A stretch of 62,797 nucleotides of DNA from Bacteroidota bacterium (GCA_016928255.1 JAFGLB010000013.1:1-62797), one strand, 5' to 3'. Shown: positions 9,328-58,496, numbered from the stretch's first letter. Program-made: numbers and translations. The notes: generated by a model from the sequence alone, not told the origin.

Positions 9328-9346
9328 TCTGAAATAATTTCGGTAT

Positions 9347-10039
9347 TCAATTTCCCTGAGTTCCGAAAATCGTGATTTTAACTTCCACGGCGGTATGATC
9401 CTTATAATCCGTTATTATATATAAAGCTTCGTTGACAAGTCCCGGCTTTTCAGGTGTTATGGTCAGATCTACGTTCAGGGTGTCATCGGGCCTGAGATAT
9501 TTTTTATCCATTCTAACGGTAATTGATGATGAAGATGTACTGTCGCGGTGAATGACGATCGGCGATCCGGAAATATTTTTCAACGATATCTTTTTTGCGG
9601 CAGGATTTTTAATCACCGCGTTTTCAATTAAATATATATGGTTCGAGCCGGCAGTCGACAGCAGCGTTTCCTTAATATCTGCAGATATTTTTATATCGAG
9701 AGATTTTGCACCGGGATCATTTGTTTCAACGTTGATATATTTTTCCGCCTTTTCAGGAGAACCGAAAAGTCTGAACACGTATTCGATGTAATCAGATTCG
9801 CCCGGCCTGAGAAATTCCTTGGGCTTTTTTACAGTTGTGCACCCGCAGGATGATCCCACATATTCTATGTGCAGCGGTTCATTGCCCGTATTCTTTATTA
9901 TTATTTTTCCGGTTCTTTTATCTCCGCTGTATAATGTTCCAAGATCGATTTCATGTTTATCGATAAAAACCTTCGGCTGCGAGAAAGCAATACCGGCGAT
10001 TAAAAATATTGCTGCAATGGATTTAAAAACAAGTTTCAT
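9347..10039 (-). CDS. DUF1573 domain-containing secreted protein
   Basis: A signal peptide is present. The DUF1573 signature is LGTLYSGDKRTGKIIIKNTGNEPLHIEYVGSSCGCTT. Confidence 0.75.
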   Translation of the reverse strand: MKLVFKSIAAIFLIAGIAFSQPKVFIDKHEIDLGTLYSGDKRTGKIIIKNTGNEPLHIEYVGSSCGCTTVKKPKEFLRPGESDYIEYVFRLFGSPEKAEKYINVETNDPGAKSLDIKISADIKETLLSTAGSNHIYLIENAVIKNPAAKKISLKNISGSPIVIHRDSTSSSSITVRMDKKYLRPDDTLNVDLTITPEKPGLVNEALYIITDYKDHTAVEVKITIFGTQGN

Positions 10040-10406: not shown

Positions 10407-11009
10407 ATGATAAGAGAAAAGAGAGGACGTATGGAACAACAAACTATCGCAATGACCGAAGTATTCAGGCCGGAAAAGCAGCAATTCCTCAGCGATCTTG
10501 ATATTGTTCACCGGGCGGTAACAGGTGACTCGGAGGCATTTCTCGGACTGTATAAACAGAACCTTCCCCGGATTTACGCTGTTTGTCTGCGTATTACGGC
10601 TGACCGGGAAGAAGCTGATGAAGTAACACAGCAGGCATTGGTCAGAACGTGGGAGATGCTTGATACCTACCGCGGCGAGAGTCCGCTTTCTGCATGGATT
10701 CATCGTATTGCTGTTAATGTCACGCTTGATTATCTGCGGTCACGTCACAATCTCAATAAGCGTATTCAGTTTACAGACGACCTTGAGATATATGATAATT
10801 CAGATACGTCCTCTTCTCGTGAAATTCAAATAGACATCGAACAAGCTATTGCTACTCTGCCTGCCCAGGCACGCGCAGTAATTGTTCTCCATTATATTGA
10901 AGGATATTCGCACAGCGAAATTTCCGGCTTGCTCGGAATTGCAATCGGCACATCAAAGGCCCATTTGCACGCTGCGAGAAGACTCTTAAAGGAGGTATTA
11001 GGACGATGA
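10407..11009 (+). CDS. ECF-type RNA polymerase sigma-70 family factor
   Basis: Region 2 is (DEVTQQALVRTWEMLDTYRGESPLSAWIHRIAVNVTLDYLR) and region 4 is (LPAQARAVIVLHYIEGYSHSEISGLLGIAIGTSKAHLHAARRLLK). An alternative start is the ATG at 10431. The stop overlaps the next gene as ATGA. Confidence 0.85.
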   Translation: MIREKRGRMEQQTIAMTEVFRPEKQQFLSDLDIVHRAVTGDSEAFLGLYKQNLPRIYAVCLRITADREEADEVTQQALVRTWEMLDTYRGESPLSAWIHRIAVNVTLDYLRSRHNLNKRIQFTDDLEIYDNSDTSSSREIQIDIEQAIATLPAQARAVIVLHYIEGYSHSEISGLLGIAIGTSKAHLHAARRLLKEVLGR

Positions 11010-40557: not shown

Positions 40558-41820
40558 TTACATCTTATCGGTTGTCTTTTCTGCTTCACGATAAGTCTTA
40601 TATTTCCTTGCTGTTTCCATCACATTTGCAGGAGGCTGTTTTTTCGCCAATTCATCGCTCATGAATTGCATATAGGGATGGATATAAGAAAAGAACGTCT
40701 TATATGCACTGCAGAGGCAGTTGAGTCCCGGTTCACCGTCCGGAGAAATTTCAAACCTGTGCTTTGGACATCCGCCATGGCATGCAAACAGGTATTCACA
40801 TCTGGTGCAGTATGAAGGAAGGGTTAAAAGTTTATTCTGCCCGAACTTCATTTGCCGGTCTGATCGAGCCATATCTTTTAAGTGTGTATATTTGATATTG
40901 CCTAACCGGTATTCCGGGTAGACATAATGATCGCACGAATACAGATCGCCGTTATGTTCCAGCACCATAGCGCTGCCGCATGTTTTGTCGAACACGCAGA
41001 GGCCCGGAGATTCGCCTGCCCAGTTTGCCAGCGTTGTATCAAAAAGCTGGACAAAGATCCTGCCTACATCATTACGCACCCATTCATCAAAAATTGTGAT
41101 AAGAAATTTTCCGTAATTTTCAGGATTTACCGAGCACTCGGTAACAGAAGTATTCGTTTTACATTCAGGAGTTACCAGGCACAGTTCTTTATCTTTAGCA
41201 CTATGATTTATTCTTTCCACTAGAGGCATGAATTGCATATATCTGCTGCCGATCGTTTTTAAAAAACTATATACCTCAAGAGGGAAACCGGCATTATGCC
41301 GGCCTACGACAGTAAGCGTATTAAATTCGACCTGATGATTTTTCAACTGCTCGATTGTTTTCATCACATCATCGAAATAAGTTTTGCCGGTCCTGTCAAT
41401 ACGGTACTTATTGTGAATTTCCATCGGACCATCTATTGAAATACCGACCAAGAAATTATTATTATGAAAAAATTTGCACCAGTCCGTATTCAGCAGAATT
41501 CCATTGCTTTGGAATGTATTTTCTATGTTTTTCCCATTGCGGTATTTGTTTTGAAGGTTAACTACTTTTTTAAAAAAATCGATGCCCAGTAAAGCGGGCT
41601 CTCCGCCCTGCCAGCCGAATGTTACAGTCGGTGCATCTTGCGATTCGATATATTGCCGGATGAAATCTTCGAGTAATTCATCACTGATAATAAAATCGTG
41701 CACGCCGGGATAAAGCTTTTTCTTCTCAGTATAGTAGCAATAGGTGCAATCGAGATTGCAGATCGGGCCGTGCGGTTTGATTATCAGGTGAAAGTCTGTG
41801 GGATTTTTACGTGAATACAT
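40558..41820 (-). CDS. Radical SAM/SPASM enzyme, anaerobic sulfatase-maturating enzyme (anSME) family
   Basis: The CxxxCxxC motif occurs in the anSME-typical context (IKPHGPICNLDCTYCYY). C-terminal Cys clusters are present (CTRCEYLFACHGGCPKHR). Confidence 0.75.
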   Translation of the reverse strand: MYSRKNPTDFHLIIKPHGPICNLDCTYCYYTEKKKLYPGVHDFIISDELLEDFIRQYIESQDAPTVTFGWQGGEPALLGIDFFKKVVNLQNKYRNGKNIENTFQSNGILLNTDWCKFFHNNNFLVGISIDGPMEIHNKYRIDRTGKTYFDDVMKTIEQLKNHQVEFNTLTVVGRHNAGFPLEVYSFLKTIGSRYMQFMPLVERINHSAKDKELCLVTPECKTNTSVTECSVNPENYGKFLITIFDEWVRNDVGRIFVQLFDTTLANWAGESPGLCVFDKTCGSAMVLEHNGDLYSCDHYVYPEYRLGNIKYTHLKDMARSDRQMKFGQNKLLTLPSYCTRCEYLFACHGGCPKHRFEISPDGEPGLNCLCSAYKTFFSYIHPYMQFMSDELAKKQPPANVMETARKYKTYREAEKTTDKM

Positions 41821-47832: not shown

Positions 47833-48348
47833 TTCTTATCCTTATTTGTTGTTAAAAAACCTGGTGCTTATTGGATTTGCTTTCTCAATTGTGACTGCTG
47901 AATCCGGCTTTTTTCCCGGAATCTGATTTTAATAAAATTCCAGCAGATTTTCGGAATTTCCGACCTTGCTGCTGCAACTTATTGAAGCTCAAGCAGTATA
48001 ATAAGAATATAATAATTATTGATAAATAAATATCCAAAGTTTGAATATCTTTAAAAAAGGTAATTGCGTATAGGGCGGATATTTAATCCCGCCGGTAAAC
48101 TTAGAAAAATAGAAGCAATGAAAGCGGGGACTGTCTAACAGAAAGAGTGTGGAGTGAGAATATTGATGTAATTTTGGTATAACGGATTCTATTGAATATA
48201 CAGCGTTAATTATTTAATATAAGTTTGTTTATTATTATTCTTTCTTATATTTTTCATCTAGCGTCTTCACCCAAGGATTTATTTGCTTTTCTATTTTACT
48301 TAAAGGCATATAAATGCTTTATATTTACTGACTACAGGCCTATTAGTT

Positions 48349-51156
48349 ATGGACTTAATTTTATTGATACAGAACTTTTCTAGTATAAAATCTCTTAAGT
48401 TCAAATTTATTAGCATTTTATTAGTTATTCCCTTGTCTTTAATTTTATTTTCCTGTAATCAGGAAGAAAAAAACAAAGAATTACCAATAATTATTCTAGA
48501 TTCTACCAAAGCCGGTTTTGAAATCAGTATAAAAGAATGGCAAATACTGGGACCATTTCCTGATGATACTACACGATTTACTCAAAGTGATTTATCGACA
48601 GAAAATCCTGGTCTATTCTGCGATTATCTAAAAGATTTCAGATTATCGGAAGGATGCATCGAAGCTTCCGATATTGTTTCTATTAGTAAATCCAAGTCTA
48701 CTCATGTTGAACAACTAACAAATGAATTCACAAACAGATCTGTAAATGATACAAATAGATATTTTTATTTTTCAAATATTTTTAAAAGAAAGGAAAACAC
48801 AACATGCTATGCATTTTGTGAAATATATAGCCCCAAAGAACAAGATGTTTTGTTTGTGGCTGGCATGGATGATGGAATGATTGCCTGGTTAAATAATAAA
48901 GTAATTATTAGCAAAGCTAAAATGGGGGGTATATTGGAATATCAATATATGGTAGTGGCCCATTTAAACAAAGGAAAAAATTTGTTCTATGCAAAAGTAT
49001 ACAATATTCACTACGATTGGGGGATGTTTATAAATATATACAGCTTGACGGCTGCTAAGGATATATTAAGCAAAAACAATTCTTTAAAAATACTGGACAA
49101 TTGGATTTACCACACAGGAGATTCTCTTAACTTCAATATTGCTTTATTCGCCTCTCCATCTCAAAAATGCAAATTAATAATAAGCGACCATCTAAAGAAT
49201 ATCGTATTAATAAAAAATGAAAAAGAAAAGAGAATCTTAAACATTAATATGTTTCAATTTAAAAAGGGAGTATATTCAGCGAAAATATGTACGGACACAA
49301 TTAATTATGAACAATCATTTTATTACGGTAATGACGCTGACTCGTTATTACCGGGGTATATTTCTAAAAGTCGGCAATATAAAGATGAAAAAACAAAGAT
49401 AAATCTTAATGCTTTAATAATACGTTATAAACATTTAATAGATCCTGAAAACAAAAAATTAGAAGATCCTACATGGCAAAGTAAATTAGTTTTCGTAATT
49501 CAAGAACTTGAAGATGTGTTTAATGATTTAGAGCATAGAAAGGATGCTTTTAAACATAAAATAGGCAAACACCTTAGAGGATTTCTCAGCGAAATAGACA
49601 ATCAGGAGCAATTTTACAAAATTTACATACCTCATAAATATGGAAATGGATCTAAACCTCTTCCGGTTGTTGTTTTTGTCCCTTTTGAAACAGCTCCAAC
49701 CAGACCATTTCTGAAAAGTTTTCATGTTGCCAATCTTAATATTGAACAGGAACAGATTCAAGCTTCAGAAAAATATGGATGCATCCTGTTGTGGATAAAT
49801 TCTCGCGGCGGTTACTCACTGGAAAATCCAATTGAGACAACTGATTATTTTGAAGTACTTAAAGCCGTTCGAGAAGATTATAATATTGATGAAAACAGGA
49901 TCTATCTGACTGGAATGTGCAGCGGCGGACTGTCTTCATTAACATTGGGAATGCGTTATCCATCACTTTTTGCAGCAATCGGAATATTCTCTCCGATAAC
50001 CCATCTTAATAAAGTAGCAAAGTCTTTCCTTCCTATTCAAAATGAAACAGCAGATGTATGGTTCGAACAAAATACTCCATTAAGATTTACTGGGAATTAT
50101 TTAAACCTGCCTATCTACATTCTTCATGGAAATAAAAGTGAAGTACCTGAAAAACAATCCTTAGAATTTGTTGATAACTGCAGAAAGAATAATGTCAATC
50201 CATACTTCAAAATAACGTATGATGATAAAAATCCCGAGATCACAAGCACAGATTATACAGTATTTGATTTTTTCAAAGAAAAGCAAAGAAATTCCAATCC
50301 AAAAATTATCGATTTTTCGACTACACAGTTAAAATATAACCGGGCATACTGGGTCACAATCGAGCGGCTGATATCATTTTCTGAAAAAGCCAAAATACGT
50401 GCCGAATATGAACAAAATAACACAATAAAGGTCGAAACTAGAAATATAGCTAAAATCAGCATACAGCTTACGGATTTAGGAATAAACAGAACCAGACCGG
50501 TCAAAGTAATAGCGAATGGAAAGACTGTTTTTAATCAGCTAGCAAAAAATAATAGTATCTCTGTGGACATAACCCCTGAAACAAGCGACTATGATTTGTA
50601 TAAAAATCATGATATAGAAGGTCCTGTTATGCATGCATTTTCTAAAGGCTTTATACTTGCGGACTGCGAAAATTCGATCATTTCGGGAAAAGATAAAATG
50701 AGCGCTCCCTGCGATTCTATTTATTGTGCATGGAAAAGAGATTATTTTGTAGAAGGATGTCGTTATAAAAAGGCCGCGCAAATAAATCAAGAAGATATTA
50801 ATAAATTAAATTTAGTCTTAATAGGTAATCCTGAAAACAATAGTTTAATCAAGAATGTTATTACAAATATTCCGCTTAAGTTTTATGCTGATAGTATTGT
50901 TCTGTGCGGCAAAGTATACAAAGGCAGGGATCTTGGAATAGAAATGATTTACCCTAATCCTCTCAATAGAAGAAAATACATCGTGATGGTCGGATCCAAT
51001 AATTGGGAGAATTTTACTATACCGCAAACTAATTTATCTACGGAAGGTTGGTACGATTTTGTGATTTTTGAAAAAGCATCAGATCAATTGTGGAATATTA
51101 TAGATGTTGGATATTTTGATAATAACTGGCAACATTTAATATCTCTTGTAAATTAA
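48349..51156 (+). CDS. Large lipoprotein with a C-terminal alpha/beta-hydrolase (dienelactone-hydrolase/esterase-like) domain
   Basis: A lipobox is present (LILFS|C). Residues about 430-620 read PLPVVVFVPF...LLWINSRGG...RIYLTGMCSGGLSS...PIYILHGNKSE. GMCSGG fits the G-x-C-x-G-G nucleophile elbow of dienelactone hydrolases. The N-terminal half is unassigned. Confidence 0.5.
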   Translation: MDLILLIQNFSSIKSLKFKFISILLVIPLSLILFSCNQEEKNKELPIIILDSTKAGFEISIKEWQILGPFPDDTTRFTQSDLSTENPGLFCDYLKDFRLSEGCIEASDIVSISKSKSTHVEQLTNEFTNRSVNDTNRYFYFSNIFKRKENTTCYAFCEIYSPKEQDVLFVAGMDDGMIAWLNNKVIISKAKMGGILEYQYMVVAHLNKGKNLFYAKVYNIHYDWGMFINIYSLTAAKDILSKNNSLKILDNWIYHTGDSLNFNIALFASPSQKCKLIISDHLKNIVLIKNEKEKRILNINMFQFKKGVYSAKICTDTINYEQSFYYGNDADSLLPGYISKSRQYKDEKTKINLNALIIRYKHLIDPENKKLEDPTWQSKLVFVIQELEDVFNDLEHRKDAFKHKIGKHLRGFLSEIDNQEQFYKIYIPHKYGNGSKPLPVVVFVPFETAPTRPFLKSFHVANLNIEQEQIQASEKYGCILLWINSRGGYSLENPIETTDYFEVLKAVREDYNIDENRIYLTGMCSGGLSSLTLGMRYPSLFAAIGIFSPITHLNKVAKSFLPIQNETADVWFEQNTPLRFTGNYLNLPIYILHGNKSEVPEKQSLEFVDNCRKNNVNPYFKITYDDKNPEITSTDYTVFDFFKEKQRNSNPKIIDFSTTQLKYNRAYWVTIERLISFSEKAKIRAEYEQNNTIKVETRNIAKISIQLTDLGINRTRPVKVIANGKTVFNQLAKNNSISVDITPETSDYDLYKNHDIEGPVMHAFSKGFILADCENSIISGKDKMSAPCDSIYCAWKRDYFVEGCRYKKAAQINQEDINKLNLVLIGNPENNSLIKNVITNIPLKFYADSIVLCGKVYKGRDLGIEMIYPNPLNRRKYIVMVGSNNWENFTIPQTNLSTEGWYDFVIFEKASDQLWNIIDVGYFDNNWQHLISLVN

Positions 51157-51231: not shown

Positions 51232-53733
51232 TTAATATTCTTCCCTTTCGCTTAACGATTTGTATTCATTGGCTTTCATAATATTCCCCTGCTTTGAGTA
51301 TAACTCTGATAGATGTTCATAAATATTTGAAAGCTTGATGTTCATGGAGCAATAACTCAAAAATCCATCGGGAATTAAATAATTATTTAATATCGATCTT
51401 TGATCTTTACAAGTAAAATTGTACATAGCACTTGTTTTACTTGCATGGAAAGAATGTTGAATTAATGAAGCCGAAATAACATTCTTATAATATTTTATTG
51501 CCTCACTAACTTGATTATGTTGTTCATAATATTCGCCTAATCGTAATGCTGGATATAAATCAGCTTGATCAAGCAGAGCTGCCTTCTGATAACAACGCAG
51601 CATTTCATTCGTATCTGTAAATTGATAAAGATCGCCGAGATAAAGCCATGGGCGCGGAAGATTAGGTAAAGTGCTAGTTACAGATTTCAATAATATTTTA
51701 GATTTTTCATATTCTTTGCAAAACAAATACAATTTTGCAAGTCGAGCGCCTGCTAATGGATCATTTTTCAAAGTATATATATTTTCTAAGCTATCTATAC
51801 TGTGACGTACTAATATGACTGATTTGTCCGGGAATCGCTTTTGCAAATCACAATAAAATGGCGAATCCAATATGCTGGGCTGCTGCTGAATGGCCTGTCC
51901 GTATTCTATAAAAGCAGAATCTATGTTTCCGACATACTCATAAAACATTCCTAAACCAATATGATAAACAGGAATACTGTGATTCAATTGTATGGCATAT
52001 TGAAAGTAATATTCTGATTTATTAATAGCTTTATTGAATAAATATAACCACCCAAGATTATAGTAAAACTCATCATCCGATGGATTAATCATAACAGCTT
52101 GTCTATAATAATTAATACTCGCTTCAATATGCCTGACTTCTGTTTCATTAAATACATAATTATGTGCTAAGAATGTATCTACATTAAATATTCTATCAAT
52201 CAATCTTTCCTCTGTCAATCCATCGGAAGATAAATAATAGGCATTATTCGGAGCCAACCGAATTGCGGATTCTATATTTTCTTTTGCTCGGATATAATTA
52301 TTATGGTTTATACTTTCAATATAATCGAGATAATAACTTTCTGCTTTTTCCTTTTTTAAAGAATTTATTGCTATAATTAAAAATATTAAGCCGAACAATA
52401 AAAAAGGGATTATGATTTTTAATTTTGAATAAAGGGTAATATGTCTGGGTTCTTTTTTCCCATAAGGTGATTGTGTGTTATGAGCAAATATGAACCAGAT
52501 AAGAAGATGTGCCCCTTTATTATACAAAATTGAAGAATAACTTAAATCCCGAACAAGAATTGCCGCGAAAGCGCTCATCATTAAAATCACAGAAGCTTTT
52601 TCATTCCATTCTTTTAAGTATTTTATTTTACGATGAGAAACATAAAAGAACGAAATAATTAAAAAACAATATGCAGCAATCCCTGGCAATCCTTTTTCAA
52701 CAGCAAGCTGTAAAAAGAAATTAAAAATCCTTCCTGCAAATGGAGCATTGTCGTTTTGATCCTTATACTTTCCATATTCGATGGCAAAATTATTTGATCC
52801 GATGCCAGTCAGTGGATGTTCTTTTATCATCATAAAGCCTGTCTTCCATAAATTTTCTCTTCCTTCATAACTCCGGATCTGTGATGTTGTACGGAACATA
52901 GAAGCTGTTGATAAAACAGAATCGCGAACCGGTGAAATTAAAAATATTATTGCTAATGGAAGAATAATTGCTGCATTAAAAAACAATACTATTTTAAGCG
53001 ATGATAACTTATATATAATAAATAATATACTTGCCACGACAAAAAAAGCTGCAATTGCTATGTACATTCCTCTGAAACAGGAGATGACTGGAATTACTAA
53101 AATTATTATTGGCAACAATAAATATAAAGTTGAAACAAAAGGCTGTTCTTTTTTATACTTAATAAAAAACAACATGATAGAAAAGGGAAGACATACGAGA
53201 TACAAAGTGCTCCATTCTGCTGTAGGAGTACCAATTGGAGCACCAAAAGAAAACGCATTCTTAAAATCATTGATATTTGATAAACCGGCAGACAACATTT
53301 GGGAATAGTTAGAAGAAAAGCCTATAATTCCATCAATGAAAAGAAATACACCTAGCACAGTAATAAAAATATAAATAGCCCTTATTTGATATTCATGTTT
53401 TAGATTAAATTTAATCCAGTAATAGAATAGAATAAAGTAGCTGATATCGGCAATACTATAATAACTATTTTCTCTATAAATTGATGTTAAATAACTTATT
53501 ACTTCTACAACAGCGATCATTGCTATTGCAATATCAAACAAAGTAAACTGATATGTATCTGACGCTAAATCAACATCTAGGATGTGTTTTGACGAGAAAA
53601 GAAAGAATACAACAAGTAAGAATAGACCTGAATTAAAAAATCCGTAAATCGTTAGGAATATTATTAAACAAGTTATTACAATAAAGGAATTGTCAAAAGC
53701 TTTCCTAAGTTCTTCCAATCTCCCTGAAAACAC
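51232..53733 (-). CDS. O-antigen-ligase-like (Wzy_C) polytopic membrane protein fused to C-terminal TPR repeats
   Basis: 833 aa with about 12 or more TM segments. The Wzy_C-type loop is HPLTGIGSNNFAIEYGKY. The C-terminal region of about 380 aa has TPR-like repeats (AIRLAPNNAYY..., YYRQAVMINPSDDEFYYNLGWLY, YFQYAIQLNHSIPVYHIGLGMFY...). Confidence 0.65.
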   Translation of the reverse strand: MFSGRLEELRKAFDNSFIVITCLIIFLTIYGFFNSGLFLLVVFFLFSSKHILDVDLASDTYQFTLFDIAIAMIAVVEVISYLTSIYRENSYYSIADISYFILFYYWIKFNLKHEYQIRAIYIFITVLGVFLFIDGIIGFSSNYSQMLSAGLSNINDFKNAFSFGAPIGTPTAEWSTLYLVCLPFSIMLFFIKYKKEQPFVSTLYLLLPIIILVIPVISCFRGMYIAIAAFFVVASILFIIYKLSSLKIVLFFNAAIILPLAIIFLISPVRDSVLSTASMFRTTSQIRSYEGRENLWKTGFMMIKEHPLTGIGSNNFAIEYGKYKDQNDNAPFAGRIFNFFLQLAVEKGLPGIAAYCFLIISFFYVSHRKIKYLKEWNEKASVILMMSAFAAILVRDLSYSSILYNKGAHLLIWFIFAHNTQSPYGKKEPRHITLYSKLKIIIPFLLFGLIFLIIAINSLKKEKAESYYLDYIESINHNNYIRAKENIESAIRLAPNNAYYLSSDGLTEERLIDRIFNVDTFLAHNYVFNETEVRHIEASINYYRQAVMINPSDDEFYYNLGWLYLFNKAINKSEYYFQYAIQLNHSIPVYHIGLGMFYEYVGNIDSAFIEYGQAIQQQPSILDSPFYCDLQKRFPDKSVILVRHSIDSLENIYTLKNDPLAGARLAKLYLFCKEYEKSKILLKSVTSTLPNLPRPWLYLGDLYQFTDTNEMLRCYQKAALLDQADLYPALRLGEYYEQHNQVSEAIKYYKNVISASLIQHSFHASKTSAMYNFTCKDQRSILNNYLIPDGFLSYCSMNIKLSNIYEHLSELYSKQGNIMKANEYKSLSEREEY

Positions 53734-53739
53734 TCCTAT

Positions 53740-54450
53740 TTATCTCCCCATCATTAACTGCATATTTTCGGATAAAAGACCAACCGCAAATTGGAACCCA
53801 ACGCCCCAAAACCAAACAGATGTAACTAAAACAGCAGATTTCCATTTTTTAAGCTGACAAATTACAGACATTCCAATTGTAAGTACGACTACGTACCATA
53901 CAGAAAATACGTTGAAGTTGTTTAAGAAATTAAAAAGAAGAACATTCTGCGATTTGTCAGCAAGGAAAAAGTCTAACCCTATTATTGTATGCAAATCGGT
54001 TAAGTTGCTTACTGCATCTACACCCTTGATGAGTATGAGCAATACATTAATGATTCCCATGAGTGCCAAAATAAATTCTGAATAAACAACAACCGCATAA
54101 AGAGTTTTAAAGTTGTTTTTTTGTGCATCAAAAAGTATTGCACCTAAATATAAAAACGAAGAAATGAACAACCATTTTAGCAGGAAGGTTATTGGTATAA
54201 GAAGACGCATAAACATTCTATATCTTGACGTTGTAGATGCAACTTTTTGTGCCTGTTCTTCGCTCATTTTGACTGTAAATGTTTCCTCCATTATTTTTTG
54301 GATAAATGGAAGCATAAAATACCCACATATGAGACTCACAGCACAAATGATTAAAAATGCCACAGGCCATTTAGGCGTTTTCTTTATATTTTCAAAAACA
54401 TCTGTTGGAGTTGCAAAAATGTTGATAATGTTAGATAACGCTACAGCCAT
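53740..54450 (-). CDS. Yip1-domain integral membrane protein
   Basis: 236 aa. The N-terminus is Yip1-like (IFATPTDVFENIKKTPKWPVAFLIICAV) and 5 TM segments follow. It overlaps the upstream ABC gene by 10 nt. Confidence 0.6.
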   Translation of the reverse strand: MAVALSNIINIFATPTDVFENIKKTPKWPVAFLIICAVSLICGYFMLPFIQKIMEETFTVKMSEEQAQKVASTTSRYRMFMRLLIPITFLLKWLFISSFLYLGAILFDAQKNNFKTLYAVVVYSEFILALMGIINVLLILIKGVDAVSNLTDLHTIIGLDFFLADKSQNVLLFNFLNNFNVFSVWYVVVLTIGMSVICQLKKWKSAVLVTSVWFWGVGFQFAVGLLSENMQLMMGR

Positions 54451-55229
54451 GACAATTTCCCTTTTTGTTTATCTTCGCTTTTATTCGCAACAACATCAAT
54501 AAATATTTCTTCTAACGATTGATACGTTTCTTGCGTAATCTCATTTTTAATCTTGCTGCGTATATCCTCTGTTTTGGATTGAAAAACTAATTTGCCTTTA
54601 TTAATTATTGCAATTTCGTCACACAGTTTTTCTATTGTATCAAGAACGTGCGAAGTAATTAATACTGTTGTGCCATTTTGCACCATTTGTTTTAAAACAT
54701 CTTTAATTCTTTTGGCTGAGATAGGGTCAATGCCTTCTAACGGTTCGTCTAATATTAATAACTTTGGTTTGTGTATAATTGCTGCGGCAAGAGAGACTTT
54801 TTTCTTCATTCCAGCAGAATATTTTTCTATCCATTCATTTTGTTTCTCGCTCAATTCAAGAAATTCGATAAGCTCTTGTGCGCGTTTTTTTATTTCGTTT
54901 TTCTCAATATCATACATAGAACCGGCAAATTCCAAATATTCCTTAACCGTGAGCTTTTCGAAGTAAGTTGGGCGCTCTAATACGAAACCTACTTGTCGTT
55001 TATATTCATAGTCTCCATCTTTTATTTCTTGGTTACGAAAATATACTTTCCCTGTATCTTTTTTGACCAACCGAGCAATTATATTAATTGTTGTTGACTT
55101 TCCAGCACCGTTAGGGCCTAAAAAACCGAAAATACTATTTTCACTTACCGATAAGTTGAGGTCATCTAAAGCTAATTTTTTAGCAAATAAATATTTTTTA
55201 GAAATATCTTCAAGTGTGAGTACGTTCAT
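54441..55229 (-). CDS. ABC transporter ATP-binding protein (ABC-2/immunity-type)
   Basis: Walker A is GPNGAGKST, the signature is YSAGMKKKVSLA, Walker B is LLILDEP and the H-loop is TSHV. An ATGA overlap joins it to the upstream membrane gene. Confidence 0.9.
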   Translation of the reverse strand: MNVLTLEDISKKYLFAKKLALDDLNLSVSENSIFGFLGPNGAGKSTTINIIARLVKKDTGKVYFRNQEIKDGDYEYKRQVGFVLERPTYFEKLTVKEYLEFAGSMYDIEKNEIKKRAQELIEFLELSEKQNEWIEKYSAGMKKKVSLAAAIIHKPKLLILDEPLEGIDPISAKRIKDVLKQMVQNGTTVLITSHVLDTIEKLCDEIAIINKGKLVFQSKTEDIRSKIKNEITQETYQSLEEIFIDVVANKSEDKQKGKLSWL

Positions 55230-55879
55230 GTTAACTCGATTATCTTATAAATATTTTTAGATAGTTGTTTTGCTGAAACTGGAATTGAAATGTAACGCCA
55301 TAAAAATAGCATGATAAGTATGTATGGATAACAATACACGACAGTATTAAAAATAATTTTGATAACGAAATATGGAATTGAAAATAATATAATAGCAAAG
55401 ATGCTAATGACTATATTTATAAATGCATATTTTAAAGAATTATTTTTTGTAGGACGAGAAGATGTTATATTGCGAAGCATAATAAATGGAAAAACAATTG
55501 TTAAGCCATATGTAAATGCTAAGAATACTTTATAGGTCGTAAGTTGAAACATGAAAAACACAATAAACGAAAACAGTAACAAACAGAATATTGTAACAAA
55601 GGCTGCTGCGAGATTTTTCGCAATTACCAAAGATTGGAAGTGAATAGGGAATAGTTGATATTTCATAAATTCATTATTAGTAATGTCAAAAAGACTATTA
55701 ATTTTATTTTCAAATATGCAAAAGAACAAAATGAATAGAGGTATTACAGTTTGCACTGCAATACTTTGATATAATAATAATAATTTCATGGAGGCAACTA
55801 TTAAGCCTAAGAATAAAGGGGCGACTATAATCTGTCTATACTTTATGAGAAGGATTATTTGAAAAATAATCATTTTCAT
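55226..55879 (-). CDS. Polytopic membrane protein (putative ABC-2 permease component)
   Basis: The product is very hydrophobic with about 6 TM segments. The longest ORF reaches 55930. The ATG at 55879 (MKMIIFQ...) overlaps the upstream stop as TAATG and is the likelier start. Confidence 0.55.
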   Translation of the reverse strand: MKMIIFQIILLIKYRQIIVAPLFLGLIVASMKLLLLYQSIAVQTVIPLFILFFCIFENKINSLFDITNNEFMKYQLFPIHFQSLVIAKNLAAAFVTIFCLLLFSFIVFFMFQLTTYKVFLAFTYGLTIVFPFIMLRNITSSRPTKNNSLKYAFINIVISIFAIILFSIPYFVIKIIFNTVVYCYPYILIMLFLWRYISIPVSAKQLSKNIYKIIELT

Positions 55880-56619
55880 TAAATATATTTTTTTGACACT
55901 ACGTATCCAGAATAAAAAGCCAAAAAACATAAAAGTAATAATAAGCCAAGATATGCAAAAGACAGAAAAACATTATTTTCTTTAGCCGCCAGTAAAAACA
56001 TTATCGGCAAATTCACTACTGGAATATGTAAGCTATAATATTGGGCATTCAACCACATTATTGGGAACCAACTTAAGGAAAGAAATGCAGAAATCTTAGC
56101 ATTTGTGGTTACGGATAATTGCTCTCTAAAAAAAAATATTGCTGCGAACACAATTTCAAAGAAAATCAAGCATAAGATTACAGCTAATGTGAAAATAATA
56201 ACTAATAAGTCAGAGAAGCCTAATAATTTAATTACAATTATTAATGGCACTATACCGTTAAAATATAGTAATATTCGAAAGTCGACAAATGAAATTTTAA
56301 AAAAAAGGAAAAACATCTGGAAAGGTGAATATGGGAAACGATTGATCTTAAAAAAAGAAATACTGAAATGATTGCGATACCTATAATCCAATATTACAAA
56401 ATTTAAGAATATTAAACTAGTAAAGAACATCATCCAAGACTTATAAAACTCTTGCCCTAAAACCATCTTTTGAAAAACGAACCGACCATAGCTAATTCCA
56501 AATACAACAAGACAACCAACACCAATCACCACACTATATCGAAGATTCCATTGCAAAAAACGACGTAAAAGCATTCTATTTAGATCGAACAATATTTTCA
56601 TTCCCTTAGAAGTTCCCAT
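55879..56619 (-). CDS. Polytopic membrane protein (putative ABC-2 permease / immunity component)
   Basis: 246 aa with about 6 TM segments. It is the first gene after the precursor-peptide hairpin. No family was recognised. Confidence 0.55.
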   Translation of the reverse strand: MGTSKGMKILFDLNRMLLRRFLQWNLRYSVVIGVGCLVVFGISYGRFVFQKMVLGQEFYKSWMMFFTSLIFLNFVILDYRYRNHFSISFFKINRFPYSPFQMFFLFFKISFVDFRILLYFNGIVPLIIVIKLLGFSDLLVIIFTLAVILCLIFFEIVFAAIFFFREQLSVTTNAKISAFLSLSWFPIMWLNAQYYSLHIPVVNLPIMFLLAAKENNVFLSFAYLGLLLLLCFLAFYSGYVVSKKYI

Positions 56620-56658
56620 ATATTCTTAATAATAGATACTTATCCAATAAATATATTG

Positions 56659-56700
56659 GGGCTGCTTAAAAACATTCTTTTTTAAGCAGCCCTTTTTTTT
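56659..56700. terminator. Strong hairpin (14-bp stem) flanked by A8/T8, directly downstream of the precursor-peptide gene; probable partial terminator or mRNA stabiliser
   Basis: ggctgcttaaaaa(56659-56672)-cattct-tttttaagcagcc(56679-56692), with T8 on the plus side. On the coding (minus) strand the stem is followed only by CAAUAUAUUUAUU. Confidence 0.5.
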
Positions 56701-56706
56701 AGATCA

Positions 56707-56979
56707 TCAGCAAGCTTCAGATTTCCAACCATTATATAATGCACCAATTGCGCATCCAGCAAGCCCTCCGTAAAACCCAAAATAAGAACCAGCACAGCCG
56801 CCCATGAATCCTCCATATGCTATATCACCTAAGCAAGCCCACCCATCCCAACCACCAACAGATTGCATCATCTGGGTGTCAGTCATTTTTACAGAGCTAT
56901 TTTGTGTGCTAGGCATGGCAGAAACAGTCACTACCAAAACCAAAGATAGAACTAGAATACACGAAATTACCTTTTTCAT
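56707..56979 (-). CDS. Gly/Cys-rich bacteriocin-like precursor peptide carrying a Sec-type signal and an internal double-glycine site
   Basis: The 90-aa product is MKKVISCILVLSLVLVVTVSA|MPSTQNSSVKMTDTQMMQSVGG|WDGWACLGDIAYGGFMGGCAGSYFGFYGGLAGCAIGALYNGWKSEAC. A perfect SD (AAGGAGG) ends 4 nt before the ATG. The 47-aa core has 13 Gly in GxxxG arrays and 4 Cys, resembling Blp/lactobin-type class II bacteriocins. Confidence 0.7.
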   Translation of the reverse strand: MKKVISCILVLSLVLVVTVSAMPSTQNSSVKMTDTQMMQSVGGWDGWACLGDIAYGGFMGGCAGSYFGFYGGLAGCAIGALYNGWKSEAC

Positions 56980-57061
56980 AAATCCTCCTTAAAGGTATGT
57001 TTTTTTGTTTAGTTATTAAAGTTCCCGCCCACTGCGGCCTGTCTGTCAACAATAAACTCCA

Positions 57062-57097
57062 ATACTTCACTTTGGCGGCCGAGCCAAAGTGAAGTAT
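57062..57097. promoter_or_regulatory. Perfect 15-bp inverted repeat (6-nt spacer) between the C39 gene and the precursor gene
   Basis: atacttcactttggc-ggccga-gccaaagtgaagtat was verified base by base. No U-tract follows on the coding strand. A TTGACA hexamer lies about 15 nt downstream on the minus strand. Confidence 0.5.
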
Positions 57098-57137
57098 CTT
57101 CATTCATAATCAACAAACCAGCAGGCAAGGATTATTT

Positions 57138-57677
57138 TTACTTGCTTTCTTTAAACACCAAGGTTTCACCTTTCCATATTTCGCACAATTCTTTTTTCCC
57201 GATCTTCATTCTTCCCATCGCTGGATTACGATAATAAAGAGTATCTTCTCTTACGCTATCAGCAACTATAAAGTGATTATTATTAACATAGAGGATAGAA
57301 GGAAATGAGGAGCACGTAAAATCATTAAACGTAAACCTCCAGCCTTCCGCTTTTAGGCCGTTTTTCTCCGCAATCTTTTTTAAGTCCAGCATAGAAGTGC
57401 CTTTATCAGTAAGCGTTATGCCAGTTTCAATTTTCTTCAGCGATATAGGAATATCGTAATAATCAAATATCATTTTTAATGCACACGGCCCGCATTCATT
57501 TGTGTTCATTTGGAAAACAACTCCATAATTACCGAGATATTCTCCAGGCGTCTTCCAAAATGCATGTTGATCATTTTTTCCTGAGTTATGGGATTCTAAT
57601 CCAAAAACAATAAAAGCAACAACAATCAATACCATTACAATTAAACCAAAGAGAGCATATTTTTTCTTTTTATTCAT
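57138..57677 (-). CDS. Stand-alone, N-terminally membrane-anchored C39-family (bacteriocin-processing) cysteine peptidase domain protein
   Basis: 179 aa. An MNKKKK segment plus a TM helix precedes the domain. The C39 motifs are QMNTNECGPCALKMIFDYYDIP (Gln/Cys) and NNNHFIVADSV (His), with Asn at His+16 where Asp is usual. No ABC transporter is fused. Confidence 0.75.
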   Translation of the reverse strand: MNKKKKYALFGLIVMVLIVVAFIVFGLESHNSGKNDQHAFWKTPGEYLGNYGVVFQMNTNECGPCALKMIFDYYDIPISLKKIETGITLTDKGTSMLDLKKIAEKNGLKAEGWRFTFNDFTCSSFPSILYVNNNHFIVADSVREDTLYYRNPAMGRMKIGKKELCEIWKGETLVFKESK

Positions 57678-58243
57678 AAATGTTTTATTCCCGCATCTTG
57701 ATTGTTGTTTTTAAATTGTAAAAAGGCTTTTTGCAATTGAACCACACTTTGAGTGCTTACTATAAATCTAACCATCTGAAAATCCTTATTGAGGAAATAT
57801 ATCACTGGAATTGGTAGAACATGAAAAGCATCTTTTGCTTTATTCTTTAAGTCTAAATACACAGGAAAGACAACATTCATCTCTTTGATGAAATCAATTG
57901 TTTCTTCTTTACCATCGATAGAAATACAGAATATATCGATAGAATCATCGATTAATGGCTTCAACAAGAGTAAGTTTTTCATTCCATCTTTACAATGAGA
58001 ACAACCTGTGGAAAAGAATAGAATGATCGTTTTCTTGTTAATAAGGGATCTTATCGCAACATCTTTTCCATCTAAAGTCTGAACTTCTGCAGGCGGTACA
58101 GTATCGCCAATGGCAAGCGGTTGAACAATAAAATTATTCTGTATATAAAGATATCCAAAACAACCGGCAATTATTATAAATGCAATTATGGACAACGCGA
58201 TTGCTTTACGTGAATGAAGTGGTATCCTATCCGTTTTACCCAT
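57674..58243 (-). CDS. Membrane-anchored TlpA/ResA-like thioredoxin-fold protein (CxxC)
   Basis: 189 aa with an N-terminal TM anchor. The motif FFSTGCSHCKDG sits in an AhpC/TSA-TlpA-like context. An ATGA overlap joins it to the C39 gene. Confidence 0.75.
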   Translation of the reverse strand: MGKTDRIPLHSRKAIALSIIAFIIIAGCFGYLYIQNNFIVQPLAIGDTVPPAEVQTLDGKDVAIRSLINKKTIILFFSTGCSHCKDGMKNLLLLKPLIDDSIDIFCISIDGKEETIDFIKEMNVVFPVYLDLKNKAKDAFHVLPIPVIYFLNKDFQMVRFIVSTQSVVQLQKAFLQFKNNNQDAGIKHL

Positions 58244-58496
58244 TACTATGCCTAGAATGATTTACATTTCTTCTGATAAGAAAAACAATTCAAATAGGCT
58301 TGGCGCTAATATACTTTTACATAATGCGTTAGCTTGATTTATATTAAATAATCTTCACAATAAAGTCAAATCTTTTAAATAAATAAAATGAATTATGATA
58401 AAGTCAGTTATTGTGGCAACTTTTTGAACGACAGAGTGTGTATGTTTTGCAGATCGTTCAAAGTCTATAGAACAAACCGCGGATACCCTGTATATT

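Follow-up and report, generated by a model that had tools for sequence, protein, structure and literature searches.

A Bacteroidota locus predicted to direct Sec-dependent export and extracytoplasmic maturation of a double-glycine-leader peptide

In Bacillus subtilis, the SDP cannibalism toxin SdpC is exported via Sec, loses its signal peptide, gains a disulfide and undergoes further trimming outside the cell. SDP is processed by SdpAB and lacks both a double-glycine leader and a C39 peptidase, and protection is provided by YknWXYZ, in which the Yip1-family protein YknW acts with an ABC transporter. Thioredoxin-fold (Trx) proteins, sometimes with a MauE partner, serve the extracytoplasmic disulfides of one Cys-rich substrate in MauD/MauE, which mature the small subunit of methylamine dehydrogenase, and in the bacteriocin-dedicated oxidoreductases BdbA/BdbB (sublancin) and PedC (pediocin); to our knowledge, the oxidoreductase is neither paired with nor fused to a C39 peptidase in any of them. 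Double-glycine leaders are found in class II bacteriocins and class II microcins whose exporters are peptidase-containing ABC transporters (PCATs: PCAT1, ComA, LahT, and CvaB), in which a fused C39 domain forms part of the exporter and cleaves on the cytoplasmic side. In bacteroidetocins (class IIf; Coyne et al. 2019, PMC6671954) the leader is 15 aa long, there is no signal peptide and export uses a fused C39-ABC protein; their clusters need a dedicated thiol oxidoreductase. The stand-alone C39 peptidase FapD, from the Fap amyloid system of Pseudomonas, carries a Sec signal, and its periplasmic action has been demonstrated by experiment; it serves amyloid secretion and has no identified substrate, canonical leader, or Trx partner (PMC5557850).

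In the window, by which we mean the whole 62,797-nt stretch of Bacteroidota DNA analyzed (GCA_016928255.1 JAFGLB010000013.1:1-62797), eight ORFs lie on the minus strand at 51232-58243, in the order Trx, C39 peptidase, precursor peptide, two polytopic membrane proteins (TM1 and TM2), ABC ATPase, Yip1, and Wzy_C-TPR. This gene set and its domain content had been proposed in a sequence-only reading, and both were borne out by the ORF coordinates and by a Pfam search, which returned AhpC-TSA, Peptidase_C39, ABC_tran, Yip1, Wzy_C, and TPR and gave no family for the precursor or the two polytopic proteins. The genes had also been described as tightly coupled. This holds for five junctions read from the sequence, namely ATGA overlaps at Trx/C39 and TM2/ABC, TAATG at TM1/TM2, a 10-nt overlap at ABC/Yip1, and a 6-nt gap at Yip1/Wzy_C-TPR, but not for the precursor gene, which is separated by 158 nt from the end of the C39 gene and by 87 nt from the start of TM1. 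The TAATG junction places the start of TM2 at 55879 and not at 55930, the start of a longer ORF. A conserved structured RNA is contained in the spacer between C39 and the precursor, and a 14-bp hairpin in that between the precursor and TM1; these flanking elements had been overlooked in the sequence-only reading.

The C39 double-glycine peptidase (57138-57677, minus strand; 179 aa; Pfam Peptidase_C39, 6e-30) is a separate membrane-anchored protein, as had been claimed, with its own ORF and an N-terminus composed of a Lys/Arg-rich segment (MNKKKK) and one TM helix, for which an N-in/C-out orientation is predicted. This stand-alone type comprises about 120 clusters at 50% identity. Alignment of the family revealed conservation of Q56, C62, H135, and N/D151, with the catalytic Cys62, His135, and Asn/Asp151 invariant. 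An AF2 model (mean pLDDT 83) has a helix at residues 2-31 joined by a linker to a globular domain, and its best fold matches are LahT150, PCAT1-PEP, and ComA-PEP, in agreement with sequence comparison. The window C39 thus has the same peptidase fold and catalytic residues as PCAT systems, yet is separate and signal-anchored rather than fused to an exporter. Relatives of this C39 on plasmids and phages are all fused PCATs with at most 34% identity. The likeness to FapD lies in being a stand-alone C39, although FapD is soluble whereas the window protein is anchored.

Topology was assigned from hydropathy, the positive-inside rule, and gene fusions. A signal anchor made of a K/R-rich N-terminus and a single helix holds across the family for both C39 and Trx. 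Natural single-chain TM-Trx-C39 fusions have no helix separating Trx from C39, which places the two domains on the same side of the membrane, and a fusion of Lnt, an extra TM, and C39 likewise points to an extracytoplasmic C39; the fusion loci also contain the leader RNA and/or a signal-plus-leader peptide. Both C39 and Trx are predicted from these features to be extracytoplasmic, as the sequence-only reading had proposed.

The Trx gene (57674-58243, minus strand) encodes a 189-aa membrane-anchored thiol-disulfide oxidoreductase with a K/R-rich N-terminal segment, one TM helix, and a CSHC active site (Pfam AhpC-TSA/Thioredoxin_8, 6e-13). Its nearest solved structures are ResA, StoA, and Etrx; the ResA/TlpA fold class is typically reductive, so the Trx could hold the catalytic thiol of C39 reduced instead of oxidizing the peptide. 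A CxHC motif is present in 42 of 45 distinct Trx partner sequences of the family, and we take this motif, as opposed to CxPC, to be of the oxidizing DsbA/PDI-like type. MauE genes are absent from the window itself, but occur in four related loci (L007, L008, L026, and L030) and in many metagenome loci, a point of likeness to MauD/MauE. Most peptide cores contain Cys in even numbers (four in 20, two in seven, and six in five of the 37 peptides counted). Even Cys counts, the CxHC motif, and the recurrence of MauE support the prediction that disulfides are formed in the peptide, and we infer the direction of the Trx reaction accordingly as oxidizing.

The precursor (56707-56979, minus strand) is a 90-aa peptide with a hydrophobic N-terminal signal (aa 1-21, 56917-56979), a double-glycine leader (aa 22-43, 56851-56916) with GG at residues 42-43, and a 47-aa core (aa 44-90, 56710-56850) that holds all four Cys. 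It was the only ORF of its type in a scan of the window, and no family in Pfam or NCBIfam covers it. The claim that a Sec-type signal precedes the GG site stands: the signal-plus-leader N-terminus is uniform at 40-43 aa in about 60 peptides, with a leader consensus of L/M at -12, E/Q at -8, M/L at -7, I/V at -4, G at -2, and G/A/S at -1, and a Shine-Dalgarno sequence is found before the first ATG in the window and in related peptide genes too. The precursor is the sole gene of the operon with a strong one. The cores are mutually unrelated across loci, hypervariable, hydrophobic, and low in charge; the window leader and its counterpart in the related locus L001 share 70% identity, yet their cores are unrelated, and comparison of core peptides with known bacteriocin families gave no match above threshold. 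PCAT-system precursors are similar in their leader consensus ending in GG and in their small, hydrophobic, Gly-rich, Cys-containing cores, but differ in that the window precursor has a Sec signal before the leader. At L002 a leaderless 48-aa peptide lies behind the same leader RNA, so the two-step leader model does not fit every locus.

Folding and covariation analysis revealed that the leader RNA (57023-57131, minus strand; P1, P1b, P2, and P3) is pseudoknotted, with the apical loop (57077-57081) pairing with the 3' internal loop (57035-57039). It is roughly 110 nt long, with an MFE of -55.3 kcal/mol (z = -7.5), and RNAalifold identified compensatory changes in 28 of 30 pairs. Over 50 distinct sequences pairing holds for 91.8% of cells, compared with about 41% in slid controls, and none of 500 shuffles did as well; for the pseudoknot helix the figure is 95%, and compensatory changes are seen there too. 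A covariance model matches the window with 110 bits (57012-57133), and there is no match in Rfam. All 26 high-scoring metagenome instances sit downstream of C39, and all but that of L049, whose contig ends too soon, lie 29-57 nt upstream of a signal-plus-GG peptide gene. Judged from sequence, this is a previously unknown structured RNA, exclusive to the peptide system. The 14-bp hairpin (56659-56692, minus strand), found by a terminator-like scan right after the precursor stop codon, is a candidate attenuator or 3'-stabilizer; in 31 of 38 loci a strong hairpin, unrelated in sequence, stands at the equivalent place (median z = -4.1).

TM1 (55879-56619, minus strand; at least four hydrophobic segments) and TM2 (55226-55879, minus strand; assigned by coupling and homology) are putatively the first and second halves of an ABC permease. 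The positional counterpart of TM1 in other loci is an 'a' permease gene or the N-terminal half of a fused 511-529-aa permease, with 23-30% identity to the counterparts in L059, L062, and L080, while TM2 has homologues in the 'b' genes of L006, L026, and L002; these genes are in turn connected by L019_b with the C-terminal half of the fused permease in L030. The ABC ATPase (54441-55229, minus strand; DrrA/ABC-2 type; Pfam ABC_tran, 8e-31) is bare, with no membrane or peptidase domain fused. Its best NCBIfam matches are DrrA, GldA, and a lantibiotic-protection ATPase, all below equivalog cut-offs, and its identity among ABC-type loci is 52-79%. Unlike PCAT systems, the window therefore has an ABC-2-type ATPase with separate permeases. 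The Yip1-family protein (53740-54450, minus strand; YknW-like; Pfam Yip1, 3e-17) recurs in most related loci, in both architectures. SDP and the system predicted here are alike in a Sec-exported precursor, a disulfide, trimming outside the cytoplasm, and putative Yip1/ABC protection, although the window Yip1 scores 82 bits against the NCBIfam YknW_fam cut-off of 110. The permease halves are, alongside the core peptide, the least conserved proteins of the locus, and the ABC/Yip1 module may serve immunity, export, or both. Bacteroidetocins have no Yip1, ABC-2 module, or leader RNA, but they too occur in the FCB group, and they resemble the window system in combining a GG leader and some four Cys with a gene for a dedicated thiol oxidoreductase and an accessory protein with multiple TMs (PMC6671954).

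About 65 related loci, all in MAGs or on metagenome contigs, were found in Bacteroidota, Ignavibacteriota, and Acidobacteriota MAGs and in metagenomes, with a common core of anchored CxHC Trx, stand-alone C39, peptide gene, and Yip1. The Trx-C39-peptide arrangement recurs in 40 species-representative genome loci, and the Trx-C39 pair is present in 34 of these 40, usually with Yip1, the remainder being mostly cut by contig ends. A further 26 metagenome loci, located by the leader RNA sequence alone, have the same gene set. Conserved across several phyla, the arrangement far exceeds what chance would give. Wzy_C-TPR (51232-53733, minus strand; an O-antigen-ligase-like membrane protein; Pfam Wzy_C, 7e-17, plus TPRs) is restricted to the window, the P0003 contig, L001, and L002; it lies 6 nt from Yip1, but the conserved core excludes it. 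A convergent 935-aa alpha/beta-hydrolase (48349-51156, plus strand; S9/PHB-depolymerase-like; Pfam Esterase_PHB and Peptidase_S9) has syntenic counterparts in the P0003 contig, L001, and L002. Over 47.8-58.5 kb GC is about 0.31, against about 0.41 on either side. By this distribution neither Wzy_C-TPR nor the esterase is a core component; both are neighbours specific to a clade and lie within a low-GC island, and the association of the esterase with the peptide system is uncertain.

The gene set, active-site residues, peptide architecture, RNA structure, co-occurrence, and fusions make it probable that this is a system for a double-glycine-leader peptide exported through Sec and matured outside the cytoplasm, the product being most likely a bacteriocin-like toxin accompanied by self-protection genes. 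The 90-aa precursor would be translated at a high level, with its own strong RBS, pseudoknotted 5' leader RNA, and 3' hairpin. Its N-terminal signal would take it through Sec and then be cut after VSA21 or retained as a membrane anchor, leaving the 22-aa leader exposed in the periplasm. The anchored C39, with its active site facing the periplasm, would cleave after Gly42-Gly43 to give the 47-aa Gly/Ala-rich core, and the co-translated anchored CSHC Trx would make or shuffle two disulfides among the four Cys, helped by MauE in many relatives. The TM1/TM2 permease, ABC ATPase, and Yip1 would pump the hydrophobic peptide out of the producing cell's inner membrane, as immunity, onward export, or both. 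A route across the outer membrane and an antibacterial activity are presumed; the window encodes no outer-membrane export component, and a DUF5686/CarboxypepD_reg OMP-like gene is present in some relatives only.

The same machinery might instead serve non-toxin peptides, either disulfide-stabilized hydrophobic signals (pheromones) or Fap-like envelope or fibre components. FapD provides a precedent, as a periplasmic C39 needed for Fap secretion in a non-toxin system (PMC5557850), and the NCBIfam models for FapD and FilB do match the window C39, weakly (2.4e-9), although bacteriocin-exporter peptidase domains match it better (1.7e-22). The cores match no bacteriocin family, the antibacterial activity is a presumed one, and at L016 the leader RNA precedes a 360-aa lipoprotein gene. 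A conserved leader with unrelated, fast-changing cores is, however, the signature of diversifying toxins and not of structural subunits; the cores are free of repeats and of amyloid-like Q/N motifs, the related loci have no consistently adjacent sensor kinase or regulator, and the ABC-2 ATPase, fast-evolving permease, and YknW-like Yip1 suit self-protection, making non-toxin peptides rather improbable. Unlikely, too, is a Trx that does not oxidize the peptide but keeps or switches the catalytic Cys of C39 reduced and active. Such redox control would agree with the almost universal, sometimes fused, Trx-C39 pairing, with the reductive fold class, and with the need to protect a cysteine protease in an oxidizing compartment, and in 6 of the 18 aligned family members, those of the window and the five nearest to it in the alignment, the catalytic Cys is part of a CGPC motif that could form an inactivating disulfide. 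Against this, the second Cys of CGPC is not kept across the family, and the presumably oxidizing CxHC motif, the co-occurrence of MauE, partner of MauD in periplasmic disulfide formation, and the mostly even Cys numbers favour peptide oxidation. FapD, moreover, functions without a Trx partner (PMC5557850). The two roles of Trx can coexist, and the CGPC motif in the window's clade hints at redox control of the protease.

Were the start codon mis-called, initiation at Met22 would yield an ordinary 22-aa double-glycine leader and cytoplasmic cleavage, and Met22-Gly43 alone is a classical leader in length and consensus. We consider this highly improbable: the first ATG is preceded at 5 nt by AAGGAGG, with nothing comparable ahead of Met22, the signal segment is kept in about 60 peptides, most without an internal Met there, C39 itself bears a signal anchor, the locus has no PCAT-type exporter, its ABC protein being a bare ATPase, and an independent gene caller likewise predicted the 90-aa ORF. 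That the eight genes are mere neighbours in a horizontally acquired island, sharing no pathway, is almost certainly wrong. The entire block is compositionally distinct and Wzy_C-TPR and the esterase are limited to the closest relatives, but the core genes overlap or abut, co-occur in several phyla, and are fused in some genomes, and a scan with the RNA only returns the same gene set. This reading is contradicted for the core genes and applies at most to Wzy_C-TPR and the esterase.

The sequence-only reading knew of no described system with this combination, and we found no prior description of such a peptide system in the literature. Sec export followed by trimming and disulfide bonding outside the cytoplasm, the layout predicted here, appears to be new for this kind of peptide.

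The eight minus-strand open reading frames of the operon, at window positions 51232-58243, were borne out exactly at the coordinates proposed by the sequence-only reading. HMM searches against Pfam and NCBIfam agreed with its domain calls, revealing AhpC-TSA/Thioredoxin_8, Peptidase_C39, ABC_tran (DrrA-like), Yip1, and Wzy_C plus TPR domains; no family in either collection was matched by the 90-aa precursor ORF or by TM1 and TM2, the putative permease halves. The genes had also been described as tightly coupled, which holds for most of the operon: the junctions between the membrane-anchored thioredoxin-fold protein (Trx) and C39, and between TM2 and ABC, both read ATGA, the TM1/TM2 junction reads TAATG, thus placing the TM2 start at 55879, the ABC and Yip1 genes overlap by 10 nt, and 6 nt separate Yip1 from Wzy_C-TPR. 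The exception is the precursor gene, which is an expression unit of its own. It lies 158 nt past C39 and 87 nt ahead of TM1, it alone in the operon has a strong Shine-Dalgarno (SD) sequence (AAGGAGG, 5 nt upstream of the first ATG), and it is flanked on both sides by strong structures, a leader RNA and a 3' hairpin.

As the sequence-only reading had held, C39 is a separate protein of 179 aa with an N-terminal signal anchor and no fused ABC exporter. It scored 104 bits against PF03412 (cut-off 22), covering profile positions 2-131 of 133, and its active site, with C62 and H135 fully conserved, Q56 conserved almost throughout, and N or D at position 151, aligns to the active-site motifs of LahT150. 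In an AF2 model, a helix spanning residues 2-31 and a disordered linker precede a confident globular domain (pLDDT ~90) with the papain-like C39 fold, whose best Foldseek matches were 6mpz (LahT150), PCAT1-PEP, and ComA-PEP, with target-normalised TM scores of 0.75-0.83 for the isolated peptidase-domain entries; a sequence search against solved structures returned the same best C39 relatives. Against the NCBIfam equivalogs for peptidase-containing ABC transporters (PCATs), the protein scored 79 bits versus a cut-off of 853, and the only ABC protein at the locus is a 262-aa ATPase with no fused peptidase. As its peptidase is not fused to an exporter, the window system falls outside the PCAT/AMS class, in which C39 is fused to the N-terminus of the TMD and NBD and is cytoplasmic, whereas the window C39 is separate and signal-anchored. 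Its predicted substrate is the adjoining peptide, which has a canonical GG site. When 1.84 billion representatives were searched exhaustively with a profile, the stand-alone family proved to be small, with ~120 clusters at E <= 1e-30, nearly all of 165-235 aa and with members of ~180 aa, while in plasmid and phage collections the C39 relatives were all fused PCATs and no cultured carrier of the stand-alone family was found. The catalytic Cys62 lies within a CGPC motif of thioredoxin-like spacing (residues 62-65; 57485-57496, minus strand), shared by the window C39 and the five proteins nearest to it in the alignment; in more distant members the last of these four positions is S, A, or N. The motif may allow the protease to be redox-controlled.

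We infer that C39 and Trx are oriented extracytoplasmically, in agreement with the earlier prediction. Members of both families have a short K/R-rich start followed by one strongly hydrophobic helix, the pattern of a signal anchor. Natural fusions that join TM, Trx(CxHC), and C39 in one chain of 308-345 aa (C39-family relatives P0075, P0106, P0136, P0146, P0164, and P0178; loci L083 and L084) have no hydrophobic segment between the domains, and both activities would therefore reside in one compartment; the same leader RNA and/or a signal-plus-GG peptide gene lies alongside these fusions. A further relative, P0184 (703 aa), consists of Lnt (apolipoprotein N-acyltransferase) extended at its C-terminus by a further TM helix and then a C39 domain of the stand-alone family. 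The C-terminus of Lnt is cytoplasmic, and the additional helix would thus place this C39 outside. FapD is a C39 peptidase able to work in the periplasm, the location predicted here, and has no known substrate or leader (PMC5557850).

Genomic contexts were compared for the loci of three C39 members and for 40 loci from species-representative genomes. The search for conserved neighbourhoods proposed with the sequence-only reading found the Trx-C39-peptide arrangement kept across the 40 genome loci and in metagenome loci. Nearly all loci that are not truncated by a contig end have Trx immediately ahead of C39; most of the 40 genome loci have Yip1, and about a dozen encode an ABC ATPase. The relatives of the operon are all uncultured, and those in genomes are all MAGs from Bacteroidota, Ignavibacteriota, Acidobacteriota, or Aminicenantia. 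The core Trx-C39-peptide...Yip1 occurs in two architectures. In the first it is joined by a secreted ~175-aa protein and often also by an OMP-like protein with DUF5686; in the second, to which the window belongs, it comes with an ATPase and either two permease genes or one fused gene (511-529 aa), to whose product the TM1/TM2 pair is equivalent. The permeases have no Pfam family and the permease halves are the least conserved proteins of the locus; TM1 was assigned by position and weak (23-30%) matches because similarity to most counterparts was undetectable. The best NCBIfam match of the ABC ATPase was TIGR01188, at 227 bits versus a cut-off of 312, and Yip1 scored 63.5 against Pfam (cut-off 28.6) and 82.4 against the NCBIfam YknW_fam (cut-off 110). 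The conserved secreted ~175-aa protein, which has no Pfam family, is encoded after the peptide gene, or in some loci before it, in loci without the ABC module (L008 1279-1812, L007 10261-10779, L016 1823-2362, L044, L056, L071, and L077). An 800-aa CarboxypepD_reg plus DUF5686 OMP-like protein (L016 3162-5573, L048, and L077; also L011 and L032) is a candidate outer-membrane exit route in some loci; no OMP-like or MauE homologue was found in the window.

The Wzy_C-TPR gene and a convergent esterase gene were found only in the window, on the 89%-identical contig of C39 relative P0003, and at L001 and L002. In the window both lie within a low-GC block at 47.8-58.5 kb (~0.31 versus ~0.41) that spans the whole operon as well as the esterase gene, a composition suggestive of horizontal acquisition. 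Its edges showed neither a tRNA nor an integrase nor long flanking repeats, only one AT-rich 14-mer. This sequence, ATTATTTAATATAA, has just two copies in the window, at 48209-48222 (plus strand) and 58339-58352 (minus strand), which lie upstream of the esterase gene, ~127 nt from its ATG, and of the Trx gene, ~96 nt from its ATG, and are oriented alike with respect to the two genes; in 4 of 100 shuffles, two or more matches arose, and the 14-mer may be a shared regulatory site or a product of chance. A radical-SAM/SPASM gene at 40558-41820 (minus strand) was set aside as a typical anaerobic sulfatase maturase (533 bits in NCBIfam, cut-off 484) unrelated to the operon.

The peptide gene directly follows C39 in nearly every locus, with a ribosome binding site (RBS) of the GGAGG or GGGGG type. 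The encoded precursors begin with Lys or Arg residues and a hydrophobic segment of 12-20 residues, which in many cases closes with a small-x-small motif (VSA, for example), followed by a leader of 20-30 residues. Judged by their sequences, these leaders follow the classical double-glycine consensus: among 37 peptides, L/M is found at -12 in 26, E/Q/D at -8 in 24, M/L at -7 in 27, and I/V at -4 in 17, with G at -2 and G/A/S at -1 in all 37. The window leader, M-T-D-T-Q-M-M-Q-S-V-G-G, fits at -12, -8, -7, -2, and -1 and has Ser at -4. Rather than forming the extreme N-terminus, the leader is preceded by a signal of ~21 aa in ~60 peptides, consistent with the Sec-type signal that had been proposed ahead of the GG site, and signal and leader together span 40-43 aa in most peptides. 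The cores belong to several unrelated families and are hydrophobic, low in charge, and often Gly/Ala-rich, with four Cys in 20 of the 37 peptides, two in 7, and six in 5; between the window and L001, the leaders are 70% identical and the cores unrelated. A profile of signal plus leader retrieved only 25 database proteins, all of 62-97 aa and all unannotated, while a single-sequence search with the window precursor returned only the query, and ten precursors and cores matched no curated family in Pfam or NCBIfam (PF10439, TIGR03949, and others), with sub-threshold leader matches at E 0.02-0.08. A match to BLB8/JUQZ-1, an unrelated Brevibacillus bacteriocin, spans the signal peptide only and was rejected. 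At L002 (10765-10911; the same locus as L003 and L010, on the Ignavibacteriota MAG chromosome OY969585), a 48-aa hydrophobic, Cys-containing peptide with neither signal nor leader is encoded behind the same leader RNA and a strong SD sequence, at odds with a two-step leader model.

Trx scored above the cut-offs for PF00578 and PF13905, has one N-terminal TM helix and a CSHC active site, and has ResA and StoA as PDB neighbours, consistent with an anchored protein of the TlpA/ResA-type fold; at the equivalog level it scored 61.8 against NCBIfam ResA, below the cut-off of 170. The CxPC motif is found in ResA, TlpA, and thioredoxin, while CPHC is of the DsbA type and CGHC of the PDI type. Instead of the reductase-type CxPC, 42 of 45 distinct Trx sequences carry CxHC, including CSHC (17), CPHC (10), CEHC (5), and CGHC (4). 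Genes for MauE-family membrane proteins close many related operons of both architectures (L007 11538-11999, L008 2622-3071, L026 13949-14428, L030 14141-14638, and many metagenome loci). Together, the CxHC motif, the MauE genes, and the even Cys counts favour a role for Trx in oxidative folding of the peptide, the function argued for the dedicated oxidoreductase of bacteroidetocin producers in Bacteroides, which lack general Dsb machinery (PMC6671954). An alternative or additional role, in which Trx keeps the protease thiol reduced, is suggested by the tight coupling of Trx and C39 and by the CGPC motif around the catalytic cysteine in the clade of the window.

Directly upstream of the precursor gene lies a pseudoknotted leader RNA of ~110 nt (57023-57131, minus strand) with strong covariation. 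It also occurs in the related loci L001-L083, with one copy to each precursor gene, and it was found in this gene system only. The window RNA folds at -55.3 kcal/mol (z = -7.5), and RNAalifold analysis of a MAFFT alignment predicted a four-helix rod in which 28 of 30 pairs show compensatory changes; 88.5% of cells were paired versus ~41% with slid partners, and none of 500 shuffles reached the observed values. The apical loop is complementary to the 3' internal loop through at least 8 different sequence pairs, including CGGCC/GGCCG, CGGGC/GCCCG, CUGUCC/GGACAG, and GGCUCC/GGAGCC. This pseudoknot, which was absent from the covariance model that built the alignment, was 93-95% paired in register, compared with 14-49% after sliding, and three of its five pairs show compensatory changes; these in-register counts replaced a test of the longest complementary run, which was dropped as not discriminating (5.4 versus 4.4 in shuffles). 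A metagenome scan with the two strands of helix P1 as the sole query returned 38 loci, 26 of which scored 83-116 bits with the covariance model, whose E-values are rough, and were exactly the loci with C39 upstream; a signal-plus-GG peptide gene lies 29-57 nt downstream in all of these except L049, where the contig end is too near. The remaining 12 matches scored at most 14 bits, had no C39 or peptide nearby, and were discarded as false positives. In loci with a gene inserted after C39 and ahead of the peptide gene, the RNA remains next to the latter, and L016 carries three copies, two preceding peptides and the third (8643-8756) preceding the gene for a 360-aa lipoprotein (8802-9884).

A search of the window against Rfam 15 gave no match at the gathering threshold, and sub-threshold matches of the window element and six other loci to MicX, sbrA, rli40, and sR24 (E <= 1) were at chance level. 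In the open-access literature we found no description of this RNA or of an RNA motif near C39, the "C39" in Weinberg 2017 being the ldcC motif. From comparative analysis, we therefore regard the leader RNA as a new family, for which a conserved pseudoknotted fold and a 5'-UTR position are established. The RBS is not sequestered in the folded RNA and no U-tract follows P1. The RNA could act as a translational switch, offer a binding site for a protein, or serve as an element for processing or stability, working with the 3' hairpin to produce an abundant small mRNA. The 3' hairpin, of 14 bp, follows the precursor stop codon (56659-56692, minus strand), and 31 of 38 related loci also have a strong hairpin there, of unrelated sequence; stable structures thus stand on both sides of the precursor mRNA. 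At L029 (~10417-10600) and L036 (~2833-3005), which lack the leader RNA motif, the C39-peptide spacers share a different conserved hairpin, GGURUGUCCUrA...UyAGGACAuUGG, which may be an alternative leader element.

The best-supported model for these data, which we consider probable, is a five-step pathway of Sec export and periplasmic maturation. The precursor would be exported by Sec, exposing the double-glycine leader in the periplasm, where C39 would cut after G42-G43 and the CSHC protein would form disulfides, while TM1/TM2-ABC-Yip1 would clear the hydrophobic product from the membrane of the producer. A mis-called precursor start, with translation from Met22 leaving no signal ahead of the leader, is highly improbable, being contradicted by the SD sequence before the first ATG and by the signal common to ~60 peptides, and was rejected. 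That the eight genes are mere neighbours is likewise contradicted by the data, in which the Trx-C39-peptide arrangement recurs from locus to locus, and is scarcely credible.

As the leader is conserved, the core is variable, and an immunity-like module is present, we infer that the product of this maturation pathway is probably antibacterial; a peptide with a non-toxin role appears rather unlikely. A more ambitious version of the pathway is doubtful, although conceivable: that this is the first recognised case of a distinct way of maturing ribosomal peptides in diderm bacteria, in which Sec export is followed by cleavage of a double-glycine second leader by a membrane-anchored periplasmic C39 and by dedicated CxHC-thioredoxin/MauE oxidative folding, with the ~110-nt pseudoknotted RNA representing a new riboswitch or self-processing class that gates precursor production, for example by envelope or redox status.

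Each part of the system is already known (the C39 peptidase, the double-glycine leader, the dedicated oxidoreductase, and the putative immunity module of ABC-2 type), while their arrangement appears to be new, with a peptidase that is unfused and a leader that is not N-terminal and is predicted to be removed outside the cytoplasm. Searches of the open-access literature for a stand-alone or periplasmic C39, for C39 together with Yip1 and thioredoxin, for MauE with C39, and for a Sec signal with a double-glycine leader found no description of this system. Bacteroidetocin (class IIf) clusters comprise four genes, encoding a 5-TM protein, a peptide with a 15-aa GG leader, a thiol oxidoreductase, and a PCAT (PMC6671954). 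The oxidoreductase and the GG site are common to these clusters and the window, and nothing else is shared: bacteroidetocins have a PCAT and a 15-aa leader, whereas the window has no PCAT and a signal peptide ahead of the leader.

Double-glycine leaders are textbook export signals of the cytoplasm, where the ABC exporter itself recognises them and cuts them off. If the proposed pathway is correct, such a leader behind a Sec signal can serve purely as a pro-sequence, and there would be a clear substrate set for periplasmic C39 peptidases, of which FapD is, to our knowledge, the only one so far. A further gain would be the leader RNA, a new pseudoknotted structured RNA with good support, and as its genomic context is unusually specific, its function should be experimentally approachable. 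The pathway would further reveal a pool of unannotated peptides in soil and sediment Bacteroidota, Ignavibacteriota, and Acidobacteriota, all labelled "hypothetical protein" and having no Pfam domain, which genome-mining tools keyed to PCATs may miss.
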